From the NCBI GenBank assembly GCA_024103355.1, contig JAGFIU010000051.1, positions 19,548-83,547 of the forward strand: a stretch of 64,000 nucleotides of DNA, written 5' to 3'. The notes below the pieces were generated by a model. The model was not told the DNA's origin, did no database searches, and was given only the letters and a program-made list of their open reading frames with translations. Position numbers and translations under genes: made by a program. Below are positions 1 to 16,352 of the stretch, one piece after another. The first letter of the stretch is position 1, and every line of letters begins with the position of its first letter. Source of the DNA: Bacteroidota bacterium (GTDB lineage Bacteria > Bacteroidota > Bacteroidia > NS11-12g > UBA955).

Positions 1-1
1 C

Positions 2-187
2 TATGATTGGAAGAAAATGAATAACAACGGAAGTCCTTTGGTATGGGGGCATCCGCAAGGCCCCACACTTACAAGAGTGATTATAGAAGCACTTGAAGAA
101 GCAGTAGAATTGGGCGGAGGATATGTTTTGGTTTTTGGATGTGCAGCCGGAGATGTTGGTATAGCGTCAATTTTTAAAGTAAACTGA
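2..187 (+). CDS. 3'-terminal fragment (C-terminal ~62 aa) of a thiolase (acetyl-CoA C-acyltransferase); the gene starts upstream of the window
   Basis: Frame-2 translation ...NGSPLVWGHPQGPTLTRVIIEALEEAVELGGGYVLVFGCAAGDVGIASIFKV* resembles the conserved thiolase C-terminus (GHPxGxTG...CxGGGxGxA). The stop is at 185-187, 11 bp before the next gene. Confidence 0.5.
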   Translation, partial: YDWKKMNNNGSPLVWGHPQGPTLTRVIIEALEEAVELGGGYVLVFGCAAGDVGIASIFKVN

Positions 188-197
188 GAGAAGAGAT

Positions 198-2288
198 ATG
201 GGAAAAACAATAAGAAAATCAACAATGGAAGCCCTTGGACTGGGAACGGTGTCAGCGATATTTAACAATGGAAAACTGCCGGTTTCTTTAGAAGAAATGG
301 TGGACAAGGTTTTTGGAGATAAGAATAACCGTGGCGCAATGGTCATTTCCGGAGCAGGTGGAATAGTAGGGGCAGGAAAGGTTATGCAGTTTGCATCACG
401 TTTGATGGATTATAACGTACCCATTATTGCCTTGGATTTGCCGGGCGCACCCGATGGGATTGCAAAACAATACAAAGGCTTGCAGGCTTCTTTTGGTGCT
501 GATGGCGCCAACAACATTATGAAGAACATCATCAAGCTGAATTATGATGGTCAAACCTTGCCTCAATCTTTGAAACAATACAATCCTAAATTCTTATTGG
601 AAGCCATTCCTGAAAGATTAGAATTGAAAAAAGCCCATTATGCTTTGTTCAAAAAAGAATATCCTGAGATTCATATTTGGTCAGTTACTTCAGGTTTCCC
701 TTCCAAAGAATTGGGCGTAGGAATTGCTCACCCGGCATTTCCACACGAAATCAATAAAGTTTTTGAAATAGTGGAGGACAGTACTTCAGCGCAAACACAT
801 CTGCTTTGGGCAATGGGGCTGATTCCAATGCAGGTAAGCGATGATTGGTCTTTTGTGCTGGATGTTTTCTTTTGCGGATTGTTACAGGCAAGCATTCAGT
901 TTTGCAACAGAACCAACACTCCTTATTGGAAAGCGGATAAATATATTCGTCAAATTCTCGGACCCAATCCATTCAGAGCACATGATGTGATTGGAGCTAA
1001 GGGAGCTAACTTCCTTACTTGGTCTTGCCTATACCATTTAGGAAAAGAATATGGCGCTTTGTTTGAGCCTACCGGAGAATTAACCGAAAGAAAAGACAGC
1101 GGTCAAAACTGGTATCCGGCTAATCATTTCAGACCTCTGGTAAATTGGCAATTGGATGAAGAAGAGTCTGAAGAATTAAAATCCATCGTGTATGGTGCTT
1201 TAATTCAAATGACCACCATCATGTTGCATGAAAAACGTACTGATTTGAGTACCATGACTGCAATTGGCGAGTTGTGTGCACAGTTTACAAATGGTATCCC
1301 TGCATTTATTCGTAAAATAGGAAGTCAACAGGCTTTGGAATACGTAAATAAATATCATCAACTTGTACCCAAAGCGGCACAGACAACATGGTATCCCGAA
1401 ACGCTGCAAAATCTCAACACTCCCGAATGGCAACAGCTCTATGTGAATGCAGAGCATGACGGCACACACGGGTTTATTACGATCAGCCGTGAGAGCTATA
1501 ATTATGATGTAAACGAAGAACTTAACCGTGCTATTGACTGGCTGCACAGCGAAGGAATCAAGAAAGTGGTATTGACTTCCGATTTTCATTTTTCTACGCA
1601 AATGGTAGGTGCGGATACTACTGAATTTTTTGTGGCTGTCAATGACAGTCATATTGGAGAGAAAATTTCTTCCGATTGGTCAAAAACAGCACGTAGGTTT
1701 TACCATGAGTTTGAAACTTCAATCGGGTTTGTCAACGGTAAAAGATGTATGGGCGGAATGTTGGAGTTGATGATGCATTGCCAATACCTTATAGCACCCG
1801 ATTATGTCAAATTTGCCATGCCGGAAGTAACACTGCCCGTAATTCCCGGAATGGAAGGCTGTCATTGGGTGTTGCGCAAAACAAATACAGACAATCATTC
1901 TAAAATGCTCGAAATGCTTTTGCATGGTCAACAAATCAATGCCCGGCAAGCACTCGGTTTCCTTGTGGATTCTTCCGGCACTATGAATGATTGCCTTGCC
2001 ATGACAAAAAACATTCTTGAAAATGGAGATACGGCTCTGCCCAAAAGAAAAATTATAGAAAATGCGATACCTCATATTGCATCTGAGATTGAGAAAATCA
2101 AATGGTCAGAAAATCCGCAAATCCTTTCAGCACAAAAAGAAATTGCCGGGTGCGTGATTGCTTCTTGTTCTGCAACTGCTGATGAGGCATTACAAATTCA
2201 AGCAAAGGTTTCTGCGCAGTTTATGTCGGGACAGCTATTTCGCAAAGGAAAGATTGGAATTGAATACGATAAATTTTCAAAAAACTAA
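198..2288 (+). CDS. Bifunctional 3-hydroxyacyl-CoA dehydrogenase (N-terminal NAD-binding domain) / enoyl-CoA hydratase (C-terminal crotonase fold), with the domains in reversed order relative to FadB/FadJ
   Basis: N-terminus has VISGAGGIVGAGKVMQFAS, which matches the GxGxxG Rossmann motif of the HAD family. The C-terminal ~250 aa (…GFITISRESYNYDVNEELNRAIDWLHSEGIKKVVLTSDFHFSTQMVGADTTEFF…) is a crotonase-type fold. 696 aa. Confidence 0.65.
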   Translation: MGKTIRKSTMEALGLGTVSAIFNNGKLPVSLEEMVDKVFGDKNNRGAMVISGAGGIVGAGKVMQFASRLMDYNVPIIALDLPGAPDGIAKQYKGLQASFGADGANNIMKNIIKLNYDGQTLPQSLKQYNPKFLLEAIPERLELKKAHYALFKKEYPEIHIWSVTSGFPSKELGVGIAHPAFPHEINKVFEIVEDSTSAQTHLLWAMGLIPMQVSDDWSFVLDVFFCGLLQASIQFCNRTNTPYWKADKYIRQILGPNPFRAHDVIGAKGANFLTWSCLYHLGKEYGALFEPTGELTERKDSGQNWYPANHFRPLVNWQLDEEESEELKSIVYGALIQMTTIMLHEKRTDLSTMTAIGELCAQFTNGIPAFIRKIGSQQALEYVNKYHQLVPKAAQTTWYPETLQNLNTPEWQQLYVNAEHDGTHGFITISRESYNYDVNEELNRAIDWLHSEGIKKVVLTSDFHFSTQMVGADTTEFFVAVNDSHIGEKISSDWSKTARRFYHEFETSIGFVNGKRCMGGMLELMMHCQYLIAPDYVKFAMPEVTLPVIPGMEGCHWVLRKTNTDNHSKMLEMLLHGQQINARQALGFLVDSSGTMNDCLAMTKNILENGDTALPKRKIIENAIPHIASEIEKIKWSENPQILSAQKEIAGCVIASCSATADEALQIQAKVSAQFMSGQLFRKGKIGIEYDKFSKN

Positions 2289-2291
2289 AGA

Positions 2292-3353
2292 ATGACAGAA
2301 AAGATAAAACAATGGCAAATGACAGAACTGAAAGCCGATTTCAAATTGGCAGTTTCTGATATGCCGCAGGTGAAAGAAGATGAAGCATTGGTAAAAGTTG
2401 CCGGATGCGGAGTTTGCCATACAGATTTGAGTTTTTGGCATGATGGCGTAAGAACAAAAAAGGAATTGCCTTTAACGCTTGGTCATGAAATCAGCGGAAC
2501 GGTTATAGAAGGACCTTCGCATCTCAAAGGGAAAAATGTCATTATTCCGGCTGTATTACCCTGTGGCGATTGCGAATTATGCAACAAAGGCAGAAGTAAT
2601 ATGTGCCAGAATCAATTGATGCCCGGAAATGATTTCCATGGAGGTTTTGCTTCTCATGTTGTTGTTCCGTACAAGTATTTGTGTCCTGTTCCGGATGCGG
2701 TTTTGCAAAAATATCAATTAGAAGAATTAGCAGTGATAGCAGATGCTATTTCAACCCCATACCAGGTTTTGAAAAAATCAGAATTGGAGAAAGGTGATTT
2801 GGCTATTTGCATTGGTGTTGGAGGTGTTGGAGTATATGGTGCATTGATTGCCAAAATTATGGGAGCCAAAGTTTTGGCAATAGATATCAATGATGAAAAA
2901 TTAGAACAAGCCAAAAAGAATGGTGTACATGCAACACTCAATTCAAAAGGTTTGGATAGCAAAGAAATTAAAGCCAAAGTAAAAGAAATAGCCAAAGAGT
3001 TGGGCGCACCCAAATACGGTTGGAAAATCTTCGAGTTTTCAGGTACTACAGCCGGTCAGGATTTAGCGTTTAACCTGCTCACTTTTACTTCAAACTTGAG
3101 TATTGTAGGGTTTACCATGAACAAACTGGAAGTAAGATTGAGCAACCTTATGGCTTTTGATGCCAAGCTCATTGGTACATGGGGATGCAAACCTGAGCTG
3201 TATTCAGAAGTAGTTGATTTGATTGCCTCCGGCAAATTGGATATCAAAGACTTTGTTCAAACTTTCCCGATGAGCCGTATCAATGAAGTTTTCCAAAACA
3301 CTTTAGCTCACAAATACACCAAACGTTCCGTATTAGTACCTGATTTTAATTAA
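2292..3353 (+). CDS. Zn-dependent alcohol dehydrogenase (MDR superfamily). Candidate 6-hydroxycyclohex-1-ene-1-carbonyl-CoA dehydrogenase (Had)-like
   Basis: GroES-like N-terminal domain with GCGVCHTDL and a structural-Zn Cys cluster (CGDCELCNKGRSNMC). Rossmann motif GVGGVGVYG. 353 aa. Starts 4 bp after the upstream stop. Confidence 0.8.
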   Translation: MTEKIKQWQMTELKADFKLAVSDMPQVKEDEALVKVAGCGVCHTDLSFWHDGVRTKKELPLTLGHEISGTVIEGPSHLKGKNVIIPAVLPCGDCELCNKGRSNMCQNQLMPGNDFHGGFASHVVVPYKYLCPVPDAVLQKYQLEELAVIADAISTPYQVLKKSELEKGDLAICIGVGGVGVYGALIAKIMGAKVLAIDINDEKLEQAKKNGVHATLNSKGLDSKEIKAKVKEIAKELGAPKYGWKIFEFSGTTAGQDLAFNLLTFTSNLSIVGFTMNKLEVRLSNLMAFDAKLIGTWGCKPELYSEVVDLIASGKLDIKDFVQTFPMSRINEVFQNTLAHKYTKRSVLVPDFN

Positions 3354-3357
3354 ACAA

Positions 3358-4473
3358 ATGAAAATAGAAATGGAAGCATTAAAAAATCACAATATCGTAG
3401 AAGACTACAACTACACTGACATTCTTTATGAAAAACGTCCTTGTTTAAACACTGACGGAACTCCTGTTGACGGCTTGTACAACGCATGGATTATCATTAA
3501 CAATCCCAAACAGTACAACTCTTACACTACCAAAGCTGTAAAGGAAATTATCCTTGCATTTGGTGAAGCTTCCAATGACAGAAGTGTTGTTGCAGTAGTA
3601 TTTACAGGTGTGGAAGACAAGGCTTTTTGTACCGGAGGAAACACCAAAGAATATGCAGAATATTATTCCGGCAACCCGCAGGAATACTCTCAATATATGC
3701 GCTTGTTCAACGATATGGTTTCTGCCATTATGAAATGTGAAAAGCCGGTTATTTCCCGTGTAAACGGAATGAGAATAGGGGGAGGACAAGAAATAGGAAT
3801 GGCTTGTGATTTCACGGTAGCAAGTGATTTAGCTCGTTTTGGGCAAGCAGGACCTAAGCATGGAAGTGCTGCTATTGGTGGCGCAACAGACTTCCTGCAT
3901 TTGTATGTGGGAGTAGAAAGAGCCATGTATTCACTTTCGTTGTGCGAGCCGTGGTCTGCACATCAGGCTTTGCATTATGGCATGATTACCGACATTGCTC
4001 CTGCATTGAAAGTGGATGGGAAATTTATTGCCAATCCTTTGGTCAATATTGAAAAATATGCTGATGAATATGGCAGGGTAATTTTTGGCGCTATGAAAAC
4101 AGGAGAAGAATTAGCAAAAGGAAAAGAGTTGATGACAAAAGGAGAAGTTGATTTGTCAAAGTTGGATGAATTGGTCAACAAGCTCATTGCAAAATTGCTG
4201 CACACCTTTCCGAATTGCCTGCACAAAACACTTTCTGAAGTGCGCAAGAAAAAATTAGAGCATTGGGATAAGAACAAAGAAAGCAGCCGTGAATGGTTGG
4301 CGTTAAATATGATGTCCGAAGCAAAAGCTGGATTCAGGGCTTTCAATTACGGTCCCAAAAATGACAGGGAAGTGGACTTTATCAAACTCCGTCAGTTGTT
4401 GGCACAAGGACACGAATGGAATGAAGACTTGCATCGTGCTATTTCTCCTCAGTTTAAAACCGAAAACGTATAA
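3358..4473 (+). CDS. Crotonase-superfamily protein with a long C-terminal extension (371 aa). Candidate ring-opening beta-oxoacyl-CoA hydrolase (Oah/BamA/BadI-like)
   Basis: Crotonase core (VVAVVFTGVEDKAFCTGGNTKEY…ISRVNGMRIGGGQEIGMACDF) followed by a ~100 aa C-terminal extension. This size matches ring-hydrolysing members rather than the ~260 aa hydratases. Confidence 0.7.
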   Translation: MKIEMEALKNHNIVEDYNYTDILYEKRPCLNTDGTPVDGLYNAWIIINNPKQYNSYTTKAVKEIILAFGEASNDRSVVAVVFTGVEDKAFCTGGNTKEYAEYYSGNPQEYSQYMRLFNDMVSAIMKCEKPVISRVNGMRIGGGQEIGMACDFTVASDLARFGQAGPKHGSAAIGGATDFLHLYVGVERAMYSLSLCEPWSAHQALHYGMITDIAPALKVDGKFIANPLVNIEKYADEYGRVIFGAMKTGEELAKGKELMTKGEVDLSKLDELVNKLIAKLLHTFPNCLHKTLSEVRKKKLEHWDKNKESSREWLALNMMSEAKAGFRAFNYGPKNDREVDFIKLRQLLAQGHEWNEDLHRAISPQFKTENV

Positions 4474-4475
4474 AA

Positions 4476-5248
4476 TGGAAAAGATTAAACTTACATATTC
4501 TCACAATCATTCTGTTGCCAATATCCTCTTGAATGATGGCAAAGGCAATGTGCTGGATAATATAATGATGTTGGAATTGTTGGATTGTTTCAAAGAATTT
4601 GCAGAAAATAAGCACCTCAAACTAATTACATTTCAAGGTGAAGGAAAGCATTTTTCTTTTGGGGCAAGCGTAGAAGAACATACACAGGAATTTGCCGAAA
4701 TGATGCTCAAAACTTTTCACCGACTATTTATGGTGTTGAAGGATATGGCAATTCCTACAATGGCAAAAATTTCGGGTCAATGTTTGGGAGGCGGAATGGA
4801 GTTAGCAATCTTATGTAATTTCTTGTTTGCAGATAAAACAGCAAAACTCGGTCAACCCGAAATTGTATTGGGAGTGTTTCCGCCACCGGCTTCCATTATT
4901 CTCCCGGAAAAAATAGGGCTTTCCCGTGCAGAAGAGTTGTTGTTGAGCGGTAGGAGTATTGATGCAGAGGAAGCATTGAGAATTGGATTGGTGCACAAGG
5001 TATTTGAAGATAAAGAAGCATTGAACCTGGGTACAGAAGAATGGATTGAAAAAAATATTATTCCTAAAAGCGCATCCTCACTTCGATTTGGTGTGAGAGC
5101 AGCCAGGGCAAAATTCAACCATGTGTTGAGTAATTTTTTACCACAACTTGAACAAATGTATCTAAGCCAGTTGATGAATACCAAAGATGCAAATGAAGGT
5201 ATTACTTCATTTTTGGAAAAACGTCAGCCGGCATGGGTAAACGAATAA
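4476..5248 (+). CDS. Enoyl-CoA hydratase/isomerase family protein (257 aa). Candidate dienoyl-CoA hydratase (Dch)-like
   Basis: Crotonase motifs (KLITFQGEGKHFSFGASVEEH…KISGQCLGGGMELAILCNFLFAD). I prefer the ATG at 4476, 3 bp after the upstream stop, over the ORF-track start at 4361, which would overlap the preceding gene by 113 bp. Confidence 0.75.
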
Positions 5249-5261
5249 AGATGAAAAGAAA

Positions 5262-7088
5262 ATGATAGTAGAAAGTGCAGTCATAAAATTTGCAGGAGAT
5301 TCCGGAGACGGGATACAGTTAGCAGGCACCTTGTTTACTGAAAACGTAGCATTGATGGGCAATGCTATCGCTACATTTCCTGATTTTCCTTCTGAAATCA
5401 GAGCACCACAAGGAACTGTTGCCGGTGTTTCCGGTTTTCAGATTCATTTTGGTACCTCGGGGGTACATAGTCCCGGAGATGCACCGGATGTGTTGGTAGC
5501 AATGAACCCGGCTGCTCTCAAAGCCAATATCCACGCTCTCAAGGCCAATTGTTTGATTATTGTGGATGCTGATTCTTTTGGAAAAAGAGATATTGAAAAA
5601 GCAGGGTTTGACAGTAATCCGTTGGAGGATGGAACATTAGAGGGATATCAGGTGATTGCCGCTCCTATTACTTCCTTAACAAAAGCTTCGGTTGCAGAAT
5701 TGGGATTGGACAATAAATCTGCTGACCGTTGTAAAAATATGTTCACGCTTGGGTTGGTGTTATGGTTATTTAATGAATCCTTGGATAGCACACTTCGATA
5801 TTTTGAACAAAAATTTAAAAAGAATCCCGTCATTGAAGCTGCCAATAAAAAGGCGTTGAATGCAGGATTTAACTATGGGTTAAATACAGAAGCGATTAAA
5901 ACTTCATTTACCGTATTACCCGCACCGAAGGCATCCGGAACTTATCGTAACATGACAGGAAACCAGGCAACCGCATGGGGATTTATGGCAGCTGCAGAAA
6001 AGGCCGGAAGACCCTTGTTTTTAGGCTCTTATCCCATTACTCCGGCAACCGATATTATGCAAGAGCTTACCAAGCACAAATGGTCAGGAGCAAGGGTTTT
6101 TCAGGCGGAGGATGAAATAGCCGGAATCTGTTCTGCCATTGGAGCTGCTTTTGCCGGAAATATTGCTGTTACTACTACATCAGGCCCCGGAATGGCTCTT
6201 AAAACAGAAGCCATCGGTTTGGCTGTGATGACAGAATTGCCGATTGTGATTGTGGATGTACAAAGAGGAGGCCCCAGTACAGGATTGCCTACCAAAACTG
6301 AACAAAGTGATTTGATGCAAGCGATCTGGGGAAGAAATGGAGAAAGTCCCGTGGTTGTGCTTTCTGCCGGAACTCCTTCTGACTGTTTTGATTGGGCTTA
6401 TGAAGCAGTGCGCATTGCCGTTGAACACATGACTCCGGTTTTTTTATTGACTGAAAGTTATCTTGGCAACGGAGCAGAACCTTGGAAAATTAAGAAATTG
6501 GCGGATATGCCTGCAATTACTCCCAGAACCTTAGCAAATCCGGATCCTGCATGGAAACCTTATAGCCGTGATGAAGAAAAATTAGCGCGTTATTGGGTAA
6601 TACCAGGCACTGCCGCTATGCAACACCGTATTGGAGGTTTAGAAAAAGATGAATGTACAGGATGCGTGTCCACCAATCCGCAAAACCATGAGAAAATGGT
6701 AAAAATTCGCAAGGAGAAAATTAAAAAAATTGAAAACTACATACCGCTACAACGATACAAAGGCAAAGATGCCAAAAAGTTATTGGTAGTAGGCTGGGGA
6801 GGACAATTTGGTATATTGATGGGAGCCGTAAAAGAATTGCAGGAAGAAGGGAAAGACTTAGCCTATGCCCATTTTAATTATATCAACCCCTTACCAAAAA
6901 ATACGGCAGAGGTGTTTTCTAAATTTGAAAAGATAATTGTTTGTGAATTGAACGATGGTCAATTAGCCAAATACTTGAGGGCGGTGATGCCTCAGTTTCA
7001 GTATGAGCAATACAACAAGATACAGGGACTTCCATTTACCGTAAAAGAACTAAAAGAAAAATTTACACAACTACTTTCTGAATTTTAA
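5262..7088 (+). CDS. korA: 2-oxoacid:ferredoxin oxidoreductase, alpha subunit (KorA-type)
   Basis: 608 aa. N-terminus GDSGDGIQLAG and the overall layout are typical of 2-oxoglutarate/2-oxoacid:ferredoxin oxidoreductase alpha subunits. The beta subunit follows 2 bp later. Confidence 0.85.
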   Translation: MIVESAVIKFAGDSGDGIQLAGTLFTENVALMGNAIATFPDFPSEIRAPQGTVAGVSGFQIHFGTSGVHSPGDAPDVLVAMNPAALKANIHALKANCLIIVDADSFGKRDIEKAGFDSNPLEDGTLEGYQVIAAPITSLTKASVAELGLDNKSADRCKNMFTLGLVLWLFNESLDSTLRYFEQKFKKNPVIEAANKKALNAGFNYGLNTEAIKTSFTVLPAPKASGTYRNMTGNQATAWGFMAAAEKAGRPLFLGSYPITPATDIMQELTKHKWSGARVFQAEDEIAGICSAIGAAFAGNIAVTTTSGPGMALKTEAIGLAVMTELPIVIVDVQRGGPSTGLPTKTEQSDLMQAIWGRNGESPVVVLSAGTPSDCFDWAYEAVRIAVEHMTPVFLLTESYLGNGAEPWKIKKLADMPAITPRTLANPDPAWKPYSRDEEKLARYWVIPGTAAMQHRIGGLEKDECTGCVSTNPQNHEKMVKIRKEKIKKIENYIPLQRYKGKDAKKLLVVGWGGQFGILMGAVKELQEEGKDLAYAHFNYINPLPKNTAEVFSKFEKIIVCELNDGQLAKYLRAVMPQFQYEQYNKIQGLPFTVKELKEKFTQLLSEF

Positions 7089-7089
7089 T

Positions 7090-8109
7090 ATGGATACATT
7101 ACAATGCTTATATAAACCGAAAGAATACGCAAGCGACCAAGAAGTAAAATGGTGTCCCGGTTGTGGTGATTATGCCATTATCAATGCTGTGCAGAAAGCC
7201 TTTTCAGAACTGAATCTGAAGAAAGAAGAAGTTGCTATTATTTCCGGTATTGGTTGTTCATCAAGATTCCCCTATTATATGGATACTTATGGTTTCCATA
7301 CTATACACGGAAGGCCTGCTGCCATTGCAACGGGTGTCAAACTTGCCAACCCTGATTTGAGTGTTTGGGTAGTAAGTGGCGATGGTGATTCGCTGGCAAT
7401 TGGAGGTAATCATTTTATCCATTTGATAAGAAGAAATATTAACCTGAATCTTTTGCTCTTTAACAATGAAATCTATGGTTTGACCAAAGGACAACATTCT
7501 CCGACAACAAAGAAAGGATTGCATACCAAATCAGCTCCTTATGGCACAATTGAAAATCCGTTCAATGTGGGAGAATTGGTATTGGGAGCACAAGGACAGT
7601 TTTTTGCAAGAGTCCCTGATACGGATGTAAAGTTGATGACAAGTGTTTTCATAGAAGCCGAAAAACATCAGGGAACTTCCATTGTTGAAGTTCTTCAAAA
7701 CTGTGTCATTTTTAATGATGAGACCCATGCTTCTGTTACATCTAAAGAAAATAAAATAAAGAACCAATTGATTTTGGAACATGGAAAGCCTATGCTGTTT
7801 GGAGAAAATAATAGTAAAGGCTTGCGTTTAAACGGTTTGGAATTAGAGGTAGTTACCATTGGCGAGAATGGAATCACCGAAAGTGACATTTTGGTGCACG
7901 ATGCTCATTGTAAATCGCCTGTTTTACATCAGATGCTAATTCAGATGAAACTTCCTGACTATCCGGTAGCAATGGGGTTAATAAGGGATGTGGAATCATC
8001 TGTTTATGATAAGGAATTTCATGGTCAGATAAAGGCGGGGAAGGCAGAAGGAAAGATAAAATCAGTTGACGAATTATTTTTTAGTGGAAATACTTTTCAA
8101 GTAAATTAA
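7090..8109 (+). CDS. korB: 2-oxoacid:ferredoxin oxidoreductase, beta subunit (TPP-binding)
   Basis: WCPGCGDYAI…GIGCSSRF…GDGD TPP-binding motifs. 339 aa. Confidence 0.85.
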   Translation: MDTLQCLYKPKEYASDQEVKWCPGCGDYAIINAVQKAFSELNLKKEEVAIISGIGCSSRFPYYMDTYGFHTIHGRPAAIATGVKLANPDLSVWVVSGDGDSLAIGGNHFIHLIRRNINLNLLLFNNEIYGLTKGQHSPTTKKGLHTKSAPYGTIENPFNVGELVLGAQGQFFARVPDTDVKLMTSVFIEAEKHQGTSIVEVLQNCVIFNDETHASVTSKENKIKNQLILEHGKPMLFGENNSKGLRLNGLELEVVTIGENGITESDILVHDAHCKSPVLHQMLIQMKLPDYPVAMGLIRDVESSVYDKEFHGQIKAGKAEGKIKSVDELFFSGNTFQVN

Positions 8110-8122
8110 TAAACAATATACT

Positions 8123-8470
8123 ATGGCTATCAAAATCACTGAAGACTGTATCAATTGCGGAGCCTGTGAGCCCGAATGTCCAAACAAAGCAATTTTTGCC
8201 AATGGAGAACCCTGGACTATGGCAGACGGTACAAACATTACCTCAGACTACACTTTAATGAACGGGAATACCATTGACCCTTTTGCTGAGCAAGAACCGG
8301 TTTCAACTGAATATTACTACATTGTTACCGATAAATGCACAGAATGTGTTGGTTTTCATGATGAACCTCAATGCGCCTCTGTGTGTCCTGTAGATTGCTG
8401 TTTGCCTGATGAAAATCACAGAGAGTCTAGAGAAGAGTTGGAAGCAAAACAAAAGAGATTACATGAATAA
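8123..8470 (+). CDS. fdx: 2x[4Fe-4S] ferredoxin, Allochromatium (Alvin)-type motif with a long inter-cluster insertion
   Basis: Cluster I is CINCGACEPECP (Cx2Cx2Cx3CP). Cluster II is CTECVGFHDEPQCASVCP (Cx2Cx8Cx3CP). About 50 aa separate the two motifs. 115 aa. Confidence 0.85.
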   Translation: MAIKITEDCINCGACEPECPNKAIFANGEPWTMADGTNITSDYTLMNGNTIDPFAEQEPVSTEYYYIVTDKCTECVGFHDEPQCASVCPVDCCLPDENHRESREELEAKQKRLHE

Positions 8471-9094
8471 ATGAGAAGTTTTCTGCAATATATGAATGAA
8501 GCAGCAGCCATTATTTTGGCCGGTGGGGAGTCCAAAAGAATGGGGTTTCCTAAACTCCTATTGCCCTTTGATAGTGGCAAAACCTTTATTGAGCAGATTG
8601 CAGATACTTATGCTAAGGTTATTCAAGGCGAGGTTATTTTGGTTATTAATGCAGAGGTATTGAAAGCTCACAGTACGTTCTTTTCTCAGTTTAAGGATTT
8701 GATAATAGTCCCAAATCATAATCCTGACCTTGGCAGAACATACTCTATCCAGCTTGGATTGGCGAAGACACAGAAAAGAAAAATTTTTATTCAAAATACT
8801 GATAATCCTTTTGTGAGTGAGAAATCGCTTTTGTCAATGCTTGAATTGGCTTCTAAAGATGCTTATGTTTCTCCGAGAAGTAACGGTAAAGGAGGACATC
8901 CGATTTTAATATGCGGAAATGTAATTGATAAGATTGTCAAGGCAGATTATGATAAAAGTTTAAAGAGCATTCTTGCTGACTCTATGCGTATAGATTGGAT
9001 AACAGATGATGCCTCTATGCTTGTGAATATTGATACTCGCGATGTTTATAAACAGTATTTTCCTAATCTAAATACGGAATTTAACAATGCATAA
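8471..9094 (+). CDS. mocA: Molybdenum cofactor cytidylyltransferase / MobA-like NTP-transferase (MocA-type)
   Basis: N-terminal AIILAGGESKRMGFPKLLLPF nucleotidyltransferase motif. Its start codon overlaps the ferredoxin stop. It sits beside xdhC and an XDH-family enzyme. Confidence 0.7.
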   Translation: MRSFLQYMNEAAAIILAGGESKRMGFPKLLLPFDSGKTFIEQIADTYAKVIQGEVILVINAEVLKAHSTFFSQFKDLIIVPNHNPDLGRTYSIQLGLAKTQKRKIFIQNTDNPFVSEKSLLSMLELASKDAYVSPRSNGKGGHPILICGNVIDKIVKADYDKSLKSILADSMRIDWITDDASMLVNIDTRDVYKQYFPNLNTEFNNA

Positions 9095-9898
9095 ATGACA
9101 AGCCCTAAATTACCATATCATCCCAACAAACTCAAATCTGCACTCTGCATTATTGTGGATACCAGAGGCTCTACACCGCGTAAAGCCGGTACTAAAATGC
9201 ATGTATTTGAAAACGGGAAAATTGAGGGAACTATTGGTGGAGGTGCTTTAGAAAAAAAAGTAATTGAAGATGCTCTTGCACAAATAAAAGTGGGCAACCC
9301 CAGATTGTTTGAACACCAGCTTCTCCAACAACATAATATGTGCTGTGGCGGTATGGTAAAGGTATATATAGAACCGGAAGCACAGAAAAATCATTTGATA
9401 ATTTTTGGTGCAGGGCATGTTGGGCAGGAATTAGCAAACCAGGCGGTGAAAGCGGAGTTTGATGTAACTGTGTTTGATGACAGACCCGAATATATACAGC
9501 AAATCACCAACGAAACTATCGAGGCTCAATGCCTTGATTTTTCAGATGCATTAAAGCAAATCTCTTTTGGTGAAAATACTTATATCGCTATTCTTACTTA
9601 CCGGCACGATATTGACCGGGCTTTGCTTCGGTATTGTTTGAGAAAAGAAAGAGCCTATCTCGGTTTTATTGGTAGTCAACGAAAAATATTGGTTACACGA
9701 AAAATGATGTTACAGGAAGGAATAGCAACAGAAGAAGAATTGAACAAAGTAGATATGCCTATTGGTTTGAACATTGGTGCTGAATCACCTTTTGAAATAG
9801 CGGTTAGCATTATGGCAAAACTGATAGAAGTGAAAAACCAAGAGCAGGTTAATACAATTCAACAAATAAAAGACATAGAACAATGCATAAAAGAATAG
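9095..9898 (+). CDS. xdhC: XdhC/CoxI-family MoCo insertion/maturation accessory protein
   Basis: 267 aa with a Rossmann-like C-terminal half (LIIFGAGHVGQELA). Starts directly after the mocA stop. Typical neighbour of XDH-family structural genes. Confidence 0.7.
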   Translation: MTSPKLPYHPNKLKSALCIIVDTRGSTPRKAGTKMHVFENGKIEGTIGGGALEKKVIEDALAQIKVGNPRLFEHQLLQQHNMCCGGMVKVYIEPEAQKNHLIIFGAGHVGQELANQAVKAEFDVTVFDDRPEYIQQITNETIEAQCLDFSDALKQISFGENTYIAILTYRHDIDRALLRYCLRKERAYLGFIGSQRKILVTRKMMLQEGIATEEELNKVDMPIGLNIGAESPFEIAVSIMAKLIEVKNQEQVNTIQQIKDIEQCIKE

Positions 9899-10605
9899 CC
9901 GTCATAACAGGAGCTGCCAAGGGTATTGGAAAATCTATTGCGCAAAGGTTCGCACGTGATGGCTATCAATGTGTATTGGTGGATGTGGATGAAGTACAAG
10001 GGCAGCAATTGGCAAAGGAATTGGGTAAGGATGCGATTTTCCGTTCATGTGATATCAGTGATGAGTCAGATGTTAAAAAGTTGTTTGAAAGCCTTGAGAG
10101 AATAGATGTTTTGATAAACAATGCCGGGATAATTCGTGATAATATGATTTGGAAAATGCCGGTGGAAGATTTTGATAGGGTTGCAAATATCAACCTGAAA
10201 GGAACATGGATGATGTGTCGCGAAGCGGCTTTGAGGATGAAGGAACAAAGAAGCGGAAGAATAGTAAACATTGCTTCTAGAGCGTGGTTAGGAAATCCTG
10301 GACAGTCTAACTATGCTGCTTCAAAAGCGGGTGTGGTAAGCCTGACAAGGGTTCTGGCTTTGGAATTGGGGCGATACGGCATATTGGTTAATGCCATTGC
10401 TCCCGGTTTGATTGATACCCCTTTGGCACAAGGGTTAACGGATGAAGTTAGAGAAAAGCTCATTCAGGCACAACCGACTAAAAGCATGGGAAAACCGGAG
10501 GATGTGGCACATGCAGCCGCTTTTCTGTGTGATGAAAATACCTTGTTTATTACCGGTCAAACCTTGTATGTAGATGGCGGAAAAAGTATTGGAGCAGGAC
10601 TGTGA
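9883..10605 (+). CDS. Short-chain dehydrogenase/reductase (FabG-like 3-oxoacyl reductase family)
   Basis: TGAAKGIGKSIA Rossmann motif, NNAG, and the YxxxK catalytic dyad (YAASKAG). 240 aa. Overlaps xdhC by 16 bp. Confidence 0.85.
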   Translation: MHKRIAVITGAAKGIGKSIAQRFARDGYQCVLVDVDEVQGQQLAKELGKDAIFRSCDISDESDVKKLFESLERIDVLINNAGIIRDNMIWKMPVEDFDRVANINLKGTWMMCREAALRMKEQRSGRIVNIASRAWLGNPGQSNYAASKAGVVSLTRVLALELGRYGILVNAIAPGLIDTPLAQGLTDEVREKLIQAQPTKSMGKPEDVAHAAAFLCDENTLFITGQTLYVDGGKSIGAGL

Positions 10606-10633
10606 AAGTATTGAAAGATGAAAAATAAATGCA

Positions 10634-13426
10634 ATGAGAAAGATAAGTTTAAAAATCAACAACAAGCCTTATACCTTTCTGGCAAACGATTCAGAGACTT
10701 TGTCTCATGTAATTCGTGAAAGGGCAGGGCTTACGGGAACAAAGGTCGGGTGCAGCCAGGGCAGTTGCGGAGCTTGTACAGTCATTGCAGACGGAGAACC
10801 GGTATTGAGTTGCATTACTCCTGCATTTCGATTTGACAATGCTGAAATTCAAACAATAGAAGGGTTATCCAATCAGGGTACTCCGGAACTTTTACAGGAA
10901 TTGTTTGTGCGCAAAGGAGCTATCCAATGTGGTTTTTGCACACCCGGAATGGTATTGACCGCTAAGGATTTTGTAAACAAAAATCCCAATGCAACCAAAC
11001 AGGATATCAAAGAAGCACTATCCGGGAATTTATGCCGCTGTACCGGTTATAAAAAGATTATTGAAGCTGTTACCGAATATACCGAACTCCACAAACAAGG
11101 TGTTGAGCACTTGCCGCCTGTTGAAGAAAGCAGCAAAATCATTGGTGTCAGCCGACCTTATATCGAAGCAGAAAAAAAGGTTTTAGGCAAAGCCCTTTAT
11201 GCCGATGATTTACAATTCAGAAATTTGTTATACTGCAAGTTTCTGCGAAGCACTCATGCTCATGCATTGATTGAAGATATTGATATTTCAGAAGCGCAAA
11301 AAATGGAAGGAGTGGCTTATGTAGCTGTAGGAAAAGAGTTGCCTGAAAAATTCGGAGTCTTGCCTGTTTCGCATGATGAAACGGCTATGGCTATCGAAAA
11401 GACACGCTATTTTGGAGAAATAGTTGCAGCCGTAGCGGCTGAGAGTTTTGAAATTGCTGAAGCTGCATGTAAAAAAATCAAAGTTAAATACAAACCGCTC
11501 AAAACTTATTTTAGCATTGAAGAATCCATTCATGACGTAGGCGACAATGCCAAGATTCACGAACACTGCAAGTTCAACAATAATATTCACAAAAAAGCAG
11601 AATTGCGTTTTGGAAACCAGGAAGAAGGATTTAATAATTCTGATATCATTTCTGAAATGGAATTTGATGTGGAAGGAGTTTCTCATGCTTTTACTGAGCC
11701 TCATTCGGCAACAGCTTATTGGGATGAAAACGGATTGACCATTCACACGGCTACACAAGTTCCTCATTATCTTCACAGAGCTTTAGCCAAAGTAATGCAA
11801 GTTCCATTGAGCAGGGTGCGTGTTATCAAACCTTATGTAGGCGGTGGTTTTGGAGGAAAGAGTGATCCCTTTCCACATGAGATGATTATCTCTCACATTG
11901 CCCGAAAGACAGGCAGGCCTGTGCGCTCCACTTTTACAAGAGAAGAAGTTTTTCTTAGCAATCACGGCAGGCATCCATCCAAATTCAAAATGAAAATGGG
12001 AGCCGACAGCAATGGAATGTTGAAAGTATTGGATGCTGATGTGGCAATAGATGGCGGTGCTTACGGCAGCTTTGGCGTGGTTACTTCATACTATAACGGG
12101 GTGCTATTACAGGCACCTTATGAAATTAAAGACTTTGGATTTAGAACGTATCGTGTTTATACCAACAAGCCTCAATGTGGTGCTATGCGTGGGCACGGAG
12201 CTGTTAATACCCGTTTTGCTGCTGAAACGCTCATAGATGATATTGCCCATAGGTTGAACATCGATCCGTGTGAAATGAGGTTGAAGAATTTTTATAAAGA
12301 AAATGTAATTACTATCGGGCAGTTCAGAATTACATCCAATGGCAGTAGAATGGCTTTGCAGCAAGTAATGGAACGCTCCGGTTGGAAAGACAAGCGTGCG
12401 AACTTGCCGGCAGGACGAGGAATTGGGGTGGGATGTGGTTTCTTCATCAGCGGAAGCGCCTTGCCGATTATCTGGAATGAATATCCTCAAACAGTGGTAC
12501 ATCTGAAATTGGATTTTGACGGAAGAATTTTGATTTCTTCCGGTGCCAGTGATATAGGCCAAGGAAGCGATACCATGCTGGCAATGGTGGTAGCAGAAAC
12601 GATGGGTGTTGATATGCAAAAAGTTTTTGTACTTGCTGCCGATACTTTGCTAACTCCGGTGGATTTAGGAAGTTATTCCAGCCGGGTTACATTCATGTGT
12701 GGAAATGCTGCCAAACAAGCGGCTGAAAAACTTAAATCTGAAATATTAGAAGCGGTTGCCAAAAGAAAAGCAATAGCAATAGAAGAATTGTATATTGAAA
12801 ACAGTCGGGTACGCTCCAATGATAAACAAGTGGATTTAGAATGGTTGGAAGCGGTGGATATGGCTACAGCTCATCGCGGAGCTTTGACGGTTAGCGGTAA
12901 TTATATTTCACCAAAATTAGGAGGCGATTTTAAAGGAGCAGGTGCAGGGTTAAGCCCTTCATACAGTTTTGGAGCGTGTATAGCAGAAGTAAATGTAGAT
13001 AAACAAACGGGGCAGGTAGAATTACTCCATGTCTGGGGTGCACACGACTGCGGAAAAGCACTGAATCCATTAGCAGTTGAGGGACAGTTGGAAGGTTCTT
13101 GGCACATGGGAATAGGACAGGCAGTCAGTGAAGAGATGAAATACTTTAACGGGTTGCTCTTAAATAACAATTTCTGTGATTACAAAATCCCTACCACCTT
13201 AGACACTCCCGAAATAGATACTAATATCATAGAATCCGGAGATCCGGAAGGACCCTTTGGGGCTAAAGAATGTGGCGAGGGAGCTTTACATCCTGTTATT
13301 CCGGCTATAGCCAATGCCATTTTTAATGCCTGTGGAGTGCGCATTACCAAACTGCCCATCAAAGCAGACGAAGTACTGTCACAAATAAAAGCAAATATGC
13401 AAGTGAAGGCGGAAGCAATAAACTAA
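10634..13426 (+). CDS. Xanthine-dehydrogenase-family molybdenum enzyme with the [2Fe-2S] small subunit fused N-terminal to the MoCo-binding large subunit (HcrC+HcrA / CoxS+CoxL-like, 930 aa)
   Basis: N-terminal ~160 aa carries GCSQGSCGACTV, CGFCTPG and CRCTGY, the two [2Fe-2S] motifs. The downstream region has the a/b-hammerhead and MoCo-binding domains, including GGGFGGK. The C-terminal part has GAKECGEGA in place of the usual GxGE catalytic-Glu loop. Confidence 0.85.
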   Translation: MRKISLKINNKPYTFLANDSETLSHVIRERAGLTGTKVGCSQGSCGACTVIADGEPVLSCITPAFRFDNAEIQTIEGLSNQGTPELLQELFVRKGAIQCGFCTPGMVLTAKDFVNKNPNATKQDIKEALSGNLCRCTGYKKIIEAVTEYTELHKQGVEHLPPVEESSKIIGVSRPYIEAEKKVLGKALYADDLQFRNLLYCKFLRSTHAHALIEDIDISEAQKMEGVAYVAVGKELPEKFGVLPVSHDETAMAIEKTRYFGEIVAAVAAESFEIAEAACKKIKVKYKPLKTYFSIEESIHDVGDNAKIHEHCKFNNNIHKKAELRFGNQEEGFNNSDIISEMEFDVEGVSHAFTEPHSATAYWDENGLTIHTATQVPHYLHRALAKVMQVPLSRVRVIKPYVGGGFGGKSDPFPHEMIISHIARKTGRPVRSTFTREEVFLSNHGRHPSKFKMKMGADSNGMLKVLDADVAIDGGAYGSFGVVTSYYNGVLLQAPYEIKDFGFRTYRVYTNKPQCGAMRGHGAVNTRFAAETLIDDIAHRLNIDPCEMRLKNFYKENVITIGQFRITSNGSRMALQQVMERSGWKDKRANLPAGRGIGVGCGFFISGSALPIIWNEYPQTVVHLKLDFDGRILISSGASDIGQGSDTMLAMVVAETMGVDMQKVFVLAADTLLTPVDLGSYSSRVTFMCGNAAKQAAEKLKSEILEAVAKRKAIAIEELYIENSRVRSNDKQVDLEWLEAVDMATAHRGALTVSGNYISPKLGGDFKGAGAGLSPSYSFGACIAEVNVDKQTGQVELLHVWGAHDCGKALNPLAVEGQLEGSWHMGIGQAVSEEMKYFNGLLLNNNFCDYKIPTTLDTPEIDTNIIESGDPEGPFGAKECGEGALHPVIPAIANAIFNACGVRITKLPIKADEVLSQIKANMQVKAEAIN

Positions 13427-13437
13427 TCAATGAAACT

Positions 13438-14376
13438 ATGGAAGCAACACAATCTTACATCAAAGTAAAAACCACGAACGAGGCAATGCAGCAAATCAAC
13501 AGCCTGCAAAATGCTATTTTCGTTGCCGGAGGTACCGATGTCTTTGTAAACAAACAACAAGGAAATATTGAAGCCGGATACTTAATAGATGTTTCGGGAA
13601 TTGAGGATTTAATGACTTGCCGTTTATATGATGACCGGATAGAAATCGGTGCCATGTTTACCCTTGAAAAAATTATCCAATCGGAAACGATTAACACTCA
13701 TTTTCCAACATTGGTTCAAGCAGCATTGGCGGTAGCAACTCCTGTAATTCGCAAAACGGCAACCATTGGAGGCAATGTGTTATGCGAAAATCGTTGTTTC
13801 TATTACAACCAAAGCGAATGGTGGCGAGAAGCCGTAGGGCATTGTCTCAAATGCAACGGGGATATTTGTTTGGCAACAGGGGGTAGAAAAAATTGTTTTT
13901 CAAAATTTGTAAGTGATACCGCACCGGTTTTGATTGCTTATGGTGCCACCGCCATTCTGATAGATGCCGATGGAGAGCGCTGTGTGCCTTTGGAGAGTAT
14001 CTATACTGGTGATGGAATTGTTTCTGTTACCTTAAACAAAAAGACTTTGCTCAAATCCATTGAAATTCCTTTAAGCACAAAAAAGGTAATTTTCAAAAAA
14101 CTCAGACCCAGAAAAACACTTGATTTTACCTCGCTTACTACTGCGGTCTCCCTTGATAATAAAATGAATTTGCGCATGGTCATCGGTGGTGTTGACCCTA
14201 AGCCGATAGTGGTGGAAGGAAATCTGAAAAAAGAAGATTTATTACAATTGGTTACCACAGCCATCAAAAAACCGAGAGTAGTGGAAAATGACTTTTACTC
14301 ACGTACATACCGGAAAGACATGATAAAAGTCTTTATAGAAAACAGTCTTAACGAATTAGGAATCCAAATTAATTAA
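13438..14376 (+). CDS. FAD-binding medium subunit of the molybdenum enzyme (CoxM/HcrB-like), with a cysteine-rich insertion loop that probably binds a [4Fe-4S] cluster
   Basis: FAD-binding fold (IFVAGGTDV). Insertion GGNVLCENRCFYYNQSEWWREAVGHCLKCNGDICLATGGRKNCF has Cys at positions 116, 120, 136, 139, 144 and 153 of the protein. Four of these have 16/8/9 spacing. Confidence 0.8.
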   Translation: MEATQSYIKVKTTNEAMQQINSLQNAIFVAGGTDVFVNKQQGNIEAGYLIDVSGIEDLMTCRLYDDRIEIGAMFTLEKIIQSETINTHFPTLVQAALAVATPVIRKTATIGGNVLCENRCFYYNQSEWWREAVGHCLKCNGDICLATGGRKNCFSKFVSDTAPVLIAYGATAILIDADGERCVPLESIYTGDGIVSVTLNKKTLLKSIEIPLSTKKVIFKKLRPRKTLDFTSLTTAVSLDNKMNLRMVIGGVDPKPIVVEGNLKKEDLLQLVTTAIKKPRVVENDFYSRTYRKDMIKVFIENSLNELGIQIN

Positions 14377-14398
14377 CAAATCATAAAACAGAATCAAC

Positions 14399-14908
14399 AT
14401 GAATGAAGTAGTCAAAGTTTTAACCGGAGAGCACGAAAATATTAAACGTGCCATTGAACATACACATCGCTTGTTTGCAGATATTTTATCCGGCAATGCA
14501 GAACTCAATATGATGTTAGAACGTATTGATTTTTTTAGAAATTATGCAGACGGATATCATCATCATAAAGAAGAAGAAGTCTTGTTTCCTGAAATGATTA
14601 AACGCAATGAAATGCTGGAATACGGTGTTATTCATGAGATGTTGCAAAATCATGAAGACTTCAGAGAAATGCTTTCCGAATTGGAAGATGCTGTAAACGA
14701 TGGAGATGCAGAAGGAGCAAAGAAAAAATTTGAAGTTTATGCAGAAGCTTTGTTAGAACATATTGCTGTAGAAGATGAAGAAGTATTTCAGATTGCCGAG
14801 ACCATTATGAGCGAAGATGAACTACTGACCGTACTCTACCGTTTTGAGGATTGTGACAGAGAGTTGGGAGTGGATGAAAAAAAAGAGTGGGAGAAAAAAA
14901 TAGGGTAG
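14399..14908 (+). CDS. Hemerythrin-like (HHE cation-binding domain) protein
   Basis: 169 aa with H…HHxxEE…H…E pattern (YHHHKEEEVLFPEM, HEMLQNHEDF, LEHIAVEDEE) typical of bacterial hemerythrin-like di-iron domains. Confidence 0.65.
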   Translation: MNEVVKVLTGEHENIKRAIEHTHRLFADILSGNAELNMMLERIDFFRNYADGYHHHKEEEVLFPEMIKRNEMLEYGVIHEMLQNHEDFREMLSELEDAVNDGDAEGAKKKFEVYAEALLEHIAVEDEEVFQIAETIMSEDELLTVLYRFEDCDRELGVDEKKEWEKKIG

Positions 14909-15008
14909 AAGGATTCTGCAATTATTGAATTGATATGTTTTACCTAAAATAAAGCAACTCGGGTTGATGCAATAAAACCAAGATTGTATTTACTTTTGTT
15001 CCAACATT

Positions 15009-15917
15009 ATGATAAACATCACCTGTAAAAGTAGTACACTGCGAATCGCGATAGCGCAAGCAATCGTTAAAGTGAGCACAGAAGAAACAATCAATGCCAT
15101 GAAGGAAAATCGTGTACCCAAAGGGGATGTTTTTGAAATGTCCAAGACTGCGGGTTTGTTTGCTGTTAAACGAACCAGTGATATGATTCCCGATTGCCAT
15201 CCTTTGCCCGTAGAATATACCAATGTAAGATTTGAAATGAAAGGGTTGGAGGTTCATATTGAAATGGAAGTTCATACAATCTACAAAACAGGTGTGGAAG
15301 TTGAAGCTATGCACGGAGTTTCAGTTGTTGCATTGACTATGTATGACATGCTCAAGCCGATTGATAAGCATATTGAAATTTGTTCTATTAAACTGAAGGA
15401 AAAGAAAGGGGGTAAATCTGATTTTAAAGATAATTTCAGAAAAGACTTAAAAGCGGCTGTGATTGTTTGTTCTGACAGCATTTCCGGGGGACAAAAGGAG
15501 GATAAGGCCGGTAAGTCAATAATAGAAAAACTTGAAAACTGTGAGGTTTCCATTTCCTCATATTTGATTATTCCTGATGAAATAGAAGAAATCAGAAAGA
15601 AAGTACAATCATTGGTTGCTTCAAACAATCTGATAATTTTGACAGGTGGAACAGGTTTGTCACCGAGAGATGTAACCCCGGAAGCATTAAAAGGAATGTT
15701 TGACAGAGAAATCCCCGGAATTATGGAAGCGGCCAGAAATTATGGACAAGAAAGAACTCCGTTTTCTATGCTTTCCCGTGGGGTAGCAGGTTTGATCGGC
15801 AATACACTTGTGCTTGCATTGCCCGGCTCTACTAAGGGAGCAAAGGAATCAATGGATGCCCTATTCCCGTATGTTTTACATATTTTTAAAATAATTGGCG
15901 GTGATAGACACGATTAA
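15009..15917 (+). CDS. moaC: Molybdenum cofactor biosynthesis fusion protein: MoaC (cyclic pyranopterin monophosphate synthase) N-terminal plus MogA/MoaB (molybdopterin adenylyltransferase) C-terminal
   Basis: N-terminal half has MoaC-like sequence (…[31 protein letters not shown]…). C-terminal half has a MogA/MoaB-like GGTG motif ([17 protein letters not shown]). 302 aa. Confidence 0.8.
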
Positions 15918-15929
15918 TATCTGATATCT

Positions 15930-16352
15930 ATGGCTGATCACTCTGTTTTAAAAGAAAATTTACGGTATTTAAGATTTGTGATATATGCAATAGTTCTTGC
16001 ATACATTTGGGTTCAATATGAATTTAATACAGAGAGTTGGGATTATAGCAATGGTCAGGCTAAAGTAATTGGGAAACATGTTAATGGTAAAGATGAAGGT
16101 ACTTGGATATGGTTTTACTCAAACGGGAAAAAGCAGATGCAAGGGGATTTTCTTCATGGGAAACGTGTGGGTACCTGGCTTATTTGGGATTCTTCCGGAA
16201 ACAAAGTCAGCGAAACCCATTATGTCAATGACAAACTTAATGGTGATTTTATTAGATGGTATTCCAACGGAAAAATAGAAAGTAAAGGAACCTATAAAGA
16301 TGATAAATTAGTTTATTCTGAAGATTATAAGGCTGATGGCTCTGCGCAATAA
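15930..16352 (+). CDS. MORN-variant (YwqK-like) repeat protein, N-terminal membrane anchor
   Basis: Repeated G-x-W-x-x-(W/Y)-x-x-NG-K units (GTWIWFYSNGKK, GTWLIWDSSGNK, DFIRWYSNGKIE). Confidence 0.55.
   Translation: MADHSVLKENLRYLRFVIYAIVLAYIWVQYEFNTESWDYSNGQAKVIGKHVNGKDEGTWIWFYSNGKKQMQGDFLHGKRVGTWLIWDSSGNKVSETHYVNDKLNGDFIRWYSNGKIESKGTYKDDKLVYSEDYKADGSAQ

Follow-up and report, generated by a model that had tools for sequence, protein, structure and literature searches.

What role do a 2-oxoacid:ferredoxin oxidoreductase (KorAB) and a ferredoxin play when their genes sit directly in front of those for a molybdenum (Mo) enzyme? The question is raised by korA, korB, and fdx, at 5262-8470 in a 64,000-nucleotide (nt) stretch of DNA from an uncultured member of the Bacteroidota (contig JAGFIU010000051.1 of assembly GCA_024103355.1; the whole stretch is referred to below as the window). 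We conclude that korAB-fdx most likely supplies low-potential electrons to oxygen-free aromatic-ring breakdown. The electron path that we favor, and regard by analogy as reasonably probable, is the one known from Thauera aromatica, in which KorAB would reduce the ferredoxin and the ferredoxin would in turn serve both the Mo enzyme and a class I benzoyl-CoA reductase, here in an uncultured member of another phylum. The three genes are as follows (lengths in amino acids, aa):

5262..7088, plus strand: korA, 2-oxoacid:ferredoxin oxidoreductase alpha subunit with fused POR and POR_N domains (608 aa, 66.1 kDa)
7090..8109, plus strand: korB, beta subunit with a thiamine-diphosphate site and a [4Fe-4S] cluster (339 aa, 37.4 kDa)
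8123..8470, plus strand: fdx, Alvin-type (YfhL-family) 2[4Fe-4S] ferredoxin in which 34 inserted residues follow the first cluster motif (115 aa)

The gap between korA and korB is 1 nt, that between korB and fdx 13 nt, and that between fdx and the following gene, mocA, 0 nt. KorA matches TIGR03710 at 646.6 bits (cut-off 482.75) and contains the Pfam domains POR and POR_N; KorB falls slightly below the cut-off of TIGR02177 (252 against 261.9 bits), with TPP_enzyme_C as its only Pfam match. The nearest solved structure for both subunits is 6N2N (KorA against 6N2N_A, E-value 4e-68; KorB, E-value 2e-55). 6N2N and 6N2O are presumably structures of the Magnetococcus marinus 2-oxoglutarate:ferredoxin oxidoreductase, although the PDB molecule field gives no enzyme name. 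These structures and KorAB share the two-subunit organization and the CPGCG, GIGCSS, and GDGD motifs, all of which are retained in the alignment of KorB with 6N2N_B together with a fourth cysteine (C205), although the sequence relationship is only moderate. The conserved Cys22, Cys25, Cys56, and Cys205 of KorB are presumably the [4Fe-4S] ligands, as generally in this family. The Pfam architecture is alpha/beta, without a ferredoxin-like delta domain. Because KorAB thus has no built-in ferredoxin domain, it needs an external electron carrier. Both profile matches are to generic subfamily models, and the names of JGI homologs, which are annotations, say 2-oxoglutarate; by analogy, this is most likely the substrate for which KorAB is specific.

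By sequence and predicted fold, the carrier encoded by fdx is an Alvin-type ferredoxin. It matches NF033683 (YfhL family) at 94.6 bits, above the cut-off of 86. Its eight ligand cysteines are arranged as C9xxC12xxC15xxxC19P and C72xxC75x8C84xxxC88P, and 52 residues separate C19 from C72. The segments 1-30 and 63-113 correspond to residues 1-29 and 28-78 of 1BLU, 2FGO, 1RGV (the T. aromatica donor), and 2ZVS, and in a multiple alignment the extra length falls into one insertion of 34 residues behind the first cluster motif; identity to 1RGV over the core is ~51%. An AlphaFold2 model has a predicted local distance difference test (pLDDT) score of 94.3, insertion included, and Foldseek compares it with the same four structures at target-normalized template-modeling scores of 0.91-0.93. 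Two traits define ferredoxins of this class (Elsen et al. 2010, PMC2984482): in one cluster, 6-7 additional residues separate two of the Cys ligands (Cx2Cx8Cx3CP in place of Cx2Cx2Cx3CP), and a 27-43-residue, partly alpha-helical fragment comes after the last ligand Cys. They also have two very low, unequal cluster reduction potentials (PMC2984482). The window ferredoxin agrees with this definition in motif, in C-terminal fragment (27 residues after C88, with a helix predicted by AlphaFold2 at 103-114), in profile, and in fold; its 115 aa exceed the size limit of the published inventory, which took in only proteins of up to 100 aa, an operational rather than a structural limit (PMC2984482). 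The form with the insertion looks unfamiliar because that inventory stopped at 100 aa. The Alvin-type ferredoxins of A. vinosum (1BLU), P. aeruginosa (Fdx1, 2FGO), and E. coli (YfhL, 2ZVS) hence share with the window protein the Cx2Cx8Cx3CP motif and a helix-bearing C-terminal extension of at least 27 residues, but the conserved insertion, the length, and the position outside the inventory set the window protein apart.

The Alvin-type second motif had been recognized in a first-pass annotation of the sequence, and the alignment to Thauera and Alvin ferredoxins that it proposed as a check gives the correspondence described above. Two further features that it singled out do not carry the weight placed on them. 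The spacing of ~50 residues between the motifs is real but not unusual for this lineage: a homolog search returned 7999 protein clusters at E<=1e-5, and among the best 120 of these the spacing is 52 residues in 119 and 53 in the remaining one. Likewise, the charged C-terminal tail, taken as special, can be matched residue for residue to the C-terminal helix that the ferredoxins of A. vinosum, P. aeruginosa, and T. aromatica have (1BLU 60-78, 1RGV 60-79). The best 120 homologs are mostly 115-116 aa long (range 114-135) and 61-86% identical to the window ferredoxin, and their named sources are Flavobacteriales, Saprospiraceae, Sphingobacteriaceae, Niabella, and Crocinitomicaceae; within the insertion, W31 and T37 are invariant. 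Judged from these homologs, the long insertion is a mark of Bacteroidota and not of the aromatic pathway, which corrects a tempting over-reading of the insertion as pathway specific. This insertion subfamily is abundant and unstudied, and may merit biochemistry as the natural partner of Bacteroidota KorAB. A possible though doubtful extension is that it represents a Bacteroidota-wide, uncharacterized Alvin-type subfamily whose insertion would serve docking or the tuning of potentials, in a fit with the two-subunit KorAB of the phylum; the pair of genes is also found outside aromatic clusters (L027). The clusters would then mark uncultured Bacteroidota as ATP-dependent anaerobic degraders of benzoate and 4-hydroxybenzoate that rely on this redox couple of their own.

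Downstream of fdx, the genes on the same strand encode the maturation factors and subunits of a Mo enzyme:

8471..9094, plus strand: mocA-like molybdenum cofactor (Moco) cytidylyltransferase (best match TIGR03310, 108.6 bits, below the cut-off of 186.45)
9095..9898, plus strand: xdhC-family Mo-enzyme maturation factor (NF045664, 206 bits; TIGR02964, 143.7 bits)
9883..10605, plus strand: FabG-like short-chain dehydrogenase (SDR), assigned from NCBIfam SDR matches and synteny
10634..13426, plus strand: fused gamma-alpha subunit (two [2Fe-2S] clusters plus molybdopterin), 4-hydroxybenzoyl-CoA-reductase-like (930 aa)
13438..14376, plus strand: flavin adenine dinucleotide (FAD) subunit that has the extra [4Fe-4S] loop characteristic of 4-hydroxybenzoyl-CoA reductase beta (1RM6_B, E-value 3.1e-42)
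14399..14908, plus strand: hemerythrin-domain protein (Pfam PF01814)
15009..15917, plus strand: bifunctional MoaC/MoaB, Moco biosynthesis (NF002947, 404.6 bits, above the cut-off of 285)

The start codon of mocA abuts the stop codon of fdx in the junction sequence. The fused subunit matches TIGR03194 with 815 bits versus 552 for XdhA, and among solved structures 1RM6_A reaches 598.8 bits versus 323 for the next. In the FAD subunit, C120, C136, C144, and C153 align with C122, C138, C146, and C155 of 1RM6_B, which Unciuleac and co-workers reportedly identified as cluster ligands. Such an extra loop binds 4-hydroxybenzoyl-CoA reductase's additional [4Fe-4S] cluster and is associated with inverted electron flow (PMC11760930, citing Unciuleac et al. 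2004); the urolithin dehydroxylase UcdC is without it (PMC11760930). Among the best-matching FAD subunits, the loop region is aligned residue by residue for 1RM6_B and, by alignment range only, for two aldehyde oxidoreductases; for the remainder, the alignment ends near query residue 115. This loop is the probable entry point for ferredoxin electrons into the enzyme.

The aromatic context becomes apparent on the 5' side of korA. The genes there, all in the same orientation, are as follows:

2..187, plus strand: thiolase, 3' end, truncated by the window start (the frame-2 translation ends in GCAAGDVGIASIFKVN and a stop; orthologous loci have a 398-aa thiolase immediately 5' of the 696-aa gene)
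198..2288, plus strand: 696-aa protein, presumed lower-pathway beta-oxidation enzyme, with a weakly 3-hydroxyacyl-CoA-dehydrogenase-like N terminus and a crotonase C terminus
2292..3353, plus strand: had, 6-hydroxycyclohex-1-ene-1-carbonyl-CoA dehydrogenase (TIGR03201, 455.9 bits, above the cut-off of 338.65)
3358..4473, plus strand: oah (bamA-type), 6-oxocyclohex-1-ene-1-carbonyl-CoA ring-opening hydrolase (TIGR03200, 598.8 bits, above the cut-off of 464.45)
4475..5248, plus strand: dch-like cyclohexa-1,5-diene-1-carbonyl-CoA hydratase (best match TIGR03189, 230.7 bits, below the cut-off of 292.5)

The enzymes encoded by dch, had, and oah catalyze the three steps after ring reduction in the benzoyl-CoA pathway. 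Closely packed genes run on the plus strand from 198 to 15917, and up to and including the FAD subunit the intergenic distances, counted from the 696-aa gene, are 0-28 nt, an arrangement that would be consistent with co-transcription. The first 187 bases belong to the 3' end of a thiolase gene, which puts the start of the window within the operon. Its upstream continuation can be read from relatives, to which we refer by L numbers. Two public contigs match the window at 99.97% identity, across 11.5 kb and 6.65 kb, and one of them (L024) extends 7.7 kb further upstream, where it encodes, in the same orientation, a partial bcrA-like gene, bcrD, an AMP-ligase, an HGD-D-type protein, an ApbA-like/BcrAD-type ATPase fusion, and the thiolase. 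BcrD scores 323-330 bits against TIGR02261 in L006 and L024 (330 in L024), above the cut-off of 312.85, and BcrB scores 661 bits in the orthologous locus L006, above the cut-off of 486.55; BcrA, at 409-417 bits (L006, L010), stays below its cut-off of 578. All four subunits (BcrC, BcrB, BcrA, and BcrD) were sought, and the loci end before BcrC would be reached. The rest of the 64-kb window contains no bcr homolog. Read from the sequences, korAB, fdx, and the Mo genes thus form the 3' portion of an operon for the benzoyl-CoA pathway, in which class I benzoyl-CoA reductase genes lie upstream of the window start; this reductase is the one that KorAB and ferredoxin classically serve.

A gene-order comparison across ~20 related loci addresses how closely fdx is tied to the Mo unit. 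Where fdx is present, three layouts occur:

Collinear (window, L001-L006, L019/L020, L025): dch-korA-korB-fdx-mocA-xdhC-SDR-hcrCA-hcrB-hemerythrin
Convergent (L033, L034): a bcr...dch-korA-korB unit faces an opposite-strand fdx-mocA-xdhC-SDR-hcrCA-hcrB-hemerythrin unit
Divergent (L026): fdx-mocA-xdhC-hcrCA-hcrB-hemerythrin and korAB diverge

Wherever fdx is present in the aromatic/Mo loci compared, it heads the Mo unit, and korAB is always adjacent. In L033, L034, and L026, korAB is on the strand opposite to fdx and the Mo genes, and therefore cannot share the transcript of the Mo unit in those loci. The KorA sequences carry a related signal: seven KorA from aromatic clusters are 67-81% identical to one another versus 60-64% to three KorA outside the group (L026, L027, L028). 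The pattern suggests that one KorAB lineage moves together with the aromatic cluster, although the grouping comes from identity clustering and may simply follow organismal phylogeny. A metagenome scan with the Mo subunit yielded four loci, too few for co-occurrence statistics. We also considered L026 as a Mo, fdx, and korAB unit independent of benzoyl-CoA reductase and rejected this, as an open reading frame (ORF) at its edge is 60% identical to the L034 gene for a 3HCDH/ECH fusion that lies between dch and korA; the aromatic cluster of L026 probably continues past the fetched flank.

Two accessory genes accompany the Mo unit through most of these layouts. The SDR gene overlaps the end of xdhC by 16 nt; most clusters keep it in the interval from xdhC to the Mo subunit, but L026 lacks it. 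It has no obvious part in a 4-hydroxybenzoyl-CoA reductase system. The hemerythrin gene lies directly 3' of the FAD subunit in related loci, including all three fdx-containing arrangements (window, L025, L026, L033, L034), and sensing of, or protection from, O2 or NO are possibilities for its function.

At the level of gene content, the locus is the known Thauera arrangement in another phylum, built from the Bacteroidota's own types of ferredoxin and KorAB. Shared with T. aromatica are a two-subunit KorAB and an Alvin-type 2[4Fe-4S] ferredoxin encoded inside a benzoyl-CoA cluster with dch, had, oah, and bcr-type class I reductase genes, and a Mo enzyme of the 4-hydroxybenzoyl-CoA reductase type with the extra [4Fe-4S] loop. 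The differences are that the host is an uncultured member of the Bacteroidota, that its ferredoxin is the 115-aa form with the 34-residue insertion (core identity to 1RGV as given above), that fdx lies beside the Mo maturation genes and not the bcr genes in the loci seen, that the Mo enzyme has its gamma and alpha subunits joined in one protein, and that an SDR and a hemerythrin accompany it. The KorAB of T. aromatica passes electrons to a ferredoxin, which in turn supplies benzoyl-CoA reductase (PMC2984482; PMC9973337), and the title of Unciuleac et al. 2004, as cited in PMC9973337, names the same ferredoxin as electron donor of 4-hydroxybenzoyl-CoA reductase. A second precedent is Rhodopseudomonas palustris, in which korAB is found with the ferredoxin BadB in the anaerobic aromatic degradation cluster of strains BisB5 and BisA53 as an optional, strain-variable element, other strains that degrade aromatics anaerobically using AadN instead (PMC9973337). 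Its aromatic cluster, too, holds a ferredoxin gene, and common to both cases is that the presence of korAB varies among related clusters; in the Bacteroidota loci, the presence of fdx varies as well. In the literature searched, we found no description of this cluster, or of this role of the ferredoxin, in Bacteroidota.

Transferred to the window, the Thauera scheme would begin with KorAB oxidizing 2-oxoglutarate to succinyl-CoA and CO2 and reducing the adjacent ferredoxin. The reduced ferredoxin would pass electrons to the [4Fe-4S] loop of the FAD subunit and from there via FAD and the two [2Fe-2S] clusters to Mo, where the enzyme, again as inferred from Thauera, would catalyze the reductive dehydroxylation of 4-hydroxybenzoyl-CoA or a similar substrate. 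Very probably, reduced ferredoxin would also feed the ATP-dependent class I benzoyl-CoA reductase whose genes lie immediately upstream of the window. This would extend to uncultured Bacteroidota the Thauera-type supply, which starts with the oxidation of 2-oxoglutarate and leads via a very low-potential ferredoxin to benzoyl-CoA and 4-hydroxybenzoyl-CoA reductases, and korAB, fdx, the Mo enzyme, and its maturation genes form a compact set in which it can be tested.

Several observations weigh against this assignment, and most of them concern how strictly the ferredoxin is bound to the pathway. In L007, L011, L012, L016, and L017, fdx is missing between korB and mocA, so that korB is followed directly by mocA, and L010 is without both korAB and fdx. 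Between L001 (7695-8083) and L007 (15349-15373), the whole fdx gene is cleanly present or absent within flanks that are 94-97% identical at the nucleotide level, and this clean loss or gain means that the operon copy is dispensable. A ferredoxin of the same type, insertion and tail included, 68% identical, is encoded beside ddl in an ordinary housekeeping neighborhood, and another, 51% identical, lies divergently beside korAB in a complete genome (L027) with no aromatic or Mo-enzyme genes within 8 kb. Operon and housekeeping ferredoxins of this short protein family are inseparable by identity (63-68% against 66-86%). Together with the 7999 clusters of the homolog search and with L028, where Moco biosynthesis genes adjoin a related korAB and the 8 kb seen on each side contain no Mo-enzyme gene, these points speak for KorAB and ferredoxin as parts of general central metabolism, for example, the 2-oxoglutarate step of the tricarboxylic acid cycle, with a cluster position that reflects convenience or co-regulation. 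We nevertheless consider this explanation unlikely, given that korAB stays adjacent to the cluster through three types of rearrangement and several family-level labels and that the cluster-linked KorA form an identity group of their own. Promoter and terminator scans of positions 1-17200 are uninformative: 53 promoter-like sites were found versus 45.7 expected, and 9 terminator-like sites versus 13.7 expected, both at chance level, the former obtained with a sigma-70 consensus that is unsuited to Bacteroidota. What the first-pass annotation had proposed is accordingly upheld in part. The contiguous order korA-korB-fdx directly upstream of the Moco maturation and structural genes stands, the genes being long ORFs whose profile matches are too strong to be due to chance. 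Its molybdenum enzyme operon does contain the Mo genes, but is the 3' end of a longer benzoyl-CoA pathway operon with bcr upstream. Its dedicated donor module keeps the support of fdx heading the Mo unit in three layouts, the retained FAD-subunit loop, and the KorA groups, whereas the five fdx-less clusters make a strictly dedicated carrier unlikely. Where the operon fdx is missing, a ferredoxin encoded elsewhere, probably a housekeeping one, would substitute.

The two remaining alternatives concern the acceptor. KorAB and ferredoxin could serve only the ATP-dependent benzoyl-CoA reductase, with the Mo enzyme a mere neighbor that has another donor; the bcr genes upstream in the same orientation and the precedent of electron flow from KorAB via ferredoxin to benzoyl-CoA reductase (PMC2984482; PMC9973337) would fit this. 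We judge it quite improbable, since fdx, where present, heads the Mo maturation and structural genes instead of lying beside bcr, even when this unit is inverted relative to bcr...korAB, and since the FAD subunit keeps the ferredoxin-type [4Fe-4S] entry loop. The other alternative reverses the direction of flow: the Mo enzyme would be an oxidative hydroxylase of the xanthine dehydrogenase family that reduces the ferredoxin, and KorAB would be unrelated to it. The majority of that family are hydroxylases, and all three subunit matches fall below the NCBIfam equivalog cut-offs for 4-hydroxybenzoyl-CoA reductase (alpha, 815 versus 994.55; beta, 206 versus 404.55; gamma, 156 versus 257.8), a further point against our assignment. 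Because of these scores, 4-hydroxybenzoyl-CoA is only a putative substrate, even though this reductase is the closest relative in the alpha and beta subunits. An oxidative enzyme nonetheless appears extremely unlikely: structurally and by profile, the reductase 1RM6 is by far the closest match, the cluster-loop region is aligned in 1RM6_B and (by range) two aldehyde oxidoreductases and absent from UcdC (PMC11760930), and the genes are located in an anaerobic benzoyl-CoA pathway operon. The Thauera-type scheme, with the ferredoxin serving both reductases, hence remains the reading that we prefer.

Further details emerged for the neighboring genes and relatives. The 696-aa protein matches Pfam ECH_1 and ECH_2, with 3HCDH_N under cut-off, and its NCBIfam matches cover only the crotonase part; an exact-match protein look-up returned no entry for it. 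In the convergent clusters, a canonical 667-669-aa 3HCDH/ECH fusion lies between dch and korA instead (L033 7980-9989, L034 7988-9991), with ~22% identity to the window protein. The dch-like gene probably starts at ATG 4475 rather than 4361, and its orthologs are called at 257 aa. Upstream of the thiolase, L024 (3626-6684) and L006 (5732-8790) encode a 405-aa HGD-D/HadB-like protein and, next to it, a 614-aa protein in which an ApbA domain (ketopantoate-reductase-like, NAD(P)-binding) is fused to a BcrAD/BadFG-type activase ATPase, a pair that is kept in most related clusters. This combination of an electron-transferring ATPase with a nicotinamide-dependent reductase domain is unusual and could provide self-contained electron input for a second radical enzyme. 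In L010, a 376-aa ORF without an NCBIfam match (1971-3101) lies between bcrA and bcrD, and L016 has a similar-sized gap at the same position. The korAB of L028 (4907-10869, in a 5.6-Mb genome) is divergent beside moeA-moaD-moaE-moaC/B; this is a second association of korAB with molybdenum. The relative L006 (GCA_039810485.1) is labeled "Chlorobiota bacterium," in contrast to the Bacteroidota/Bacteroidia labels and type IX markers of the window and other relatives, and this label may be unreliable.

Elsewhere in the window, an Rfam scan of its whole length found no riboswitch near the Moco genes; its only matches are a Bacteroidales-type small signal recognition particle (SRP) RNA at 58711-58815 on the minus strand (68.3 bits) and one tRNA at 27466-27539, also on the minus strand. 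Like this SRP RNA, the type IX secretion tails and CHU_C domains encoded in the window mark its organism as a member of the Bacteroidota in the broad sense, and an identical KorA in a protein collection carries the label "MAG: Bacteroidetes bacterium." At 44808-50045 (minus strand), two tandem paralogous C10 (streptopain-like) cysteine peptidases each combine an I69 inhibitor prodomain with a type IX secretion C-terminal tail. A divergent heme-copper oxidase subunit-I-like protein (37373-38683) and a multiheme cytochrome with paired CXXCH motifs fused to TPR-like repeats (58886-60823) hint at a respiratory, possibly microaerobic or denitrifying, lifestyle, which would fit an ATP-dependent class I reductase.

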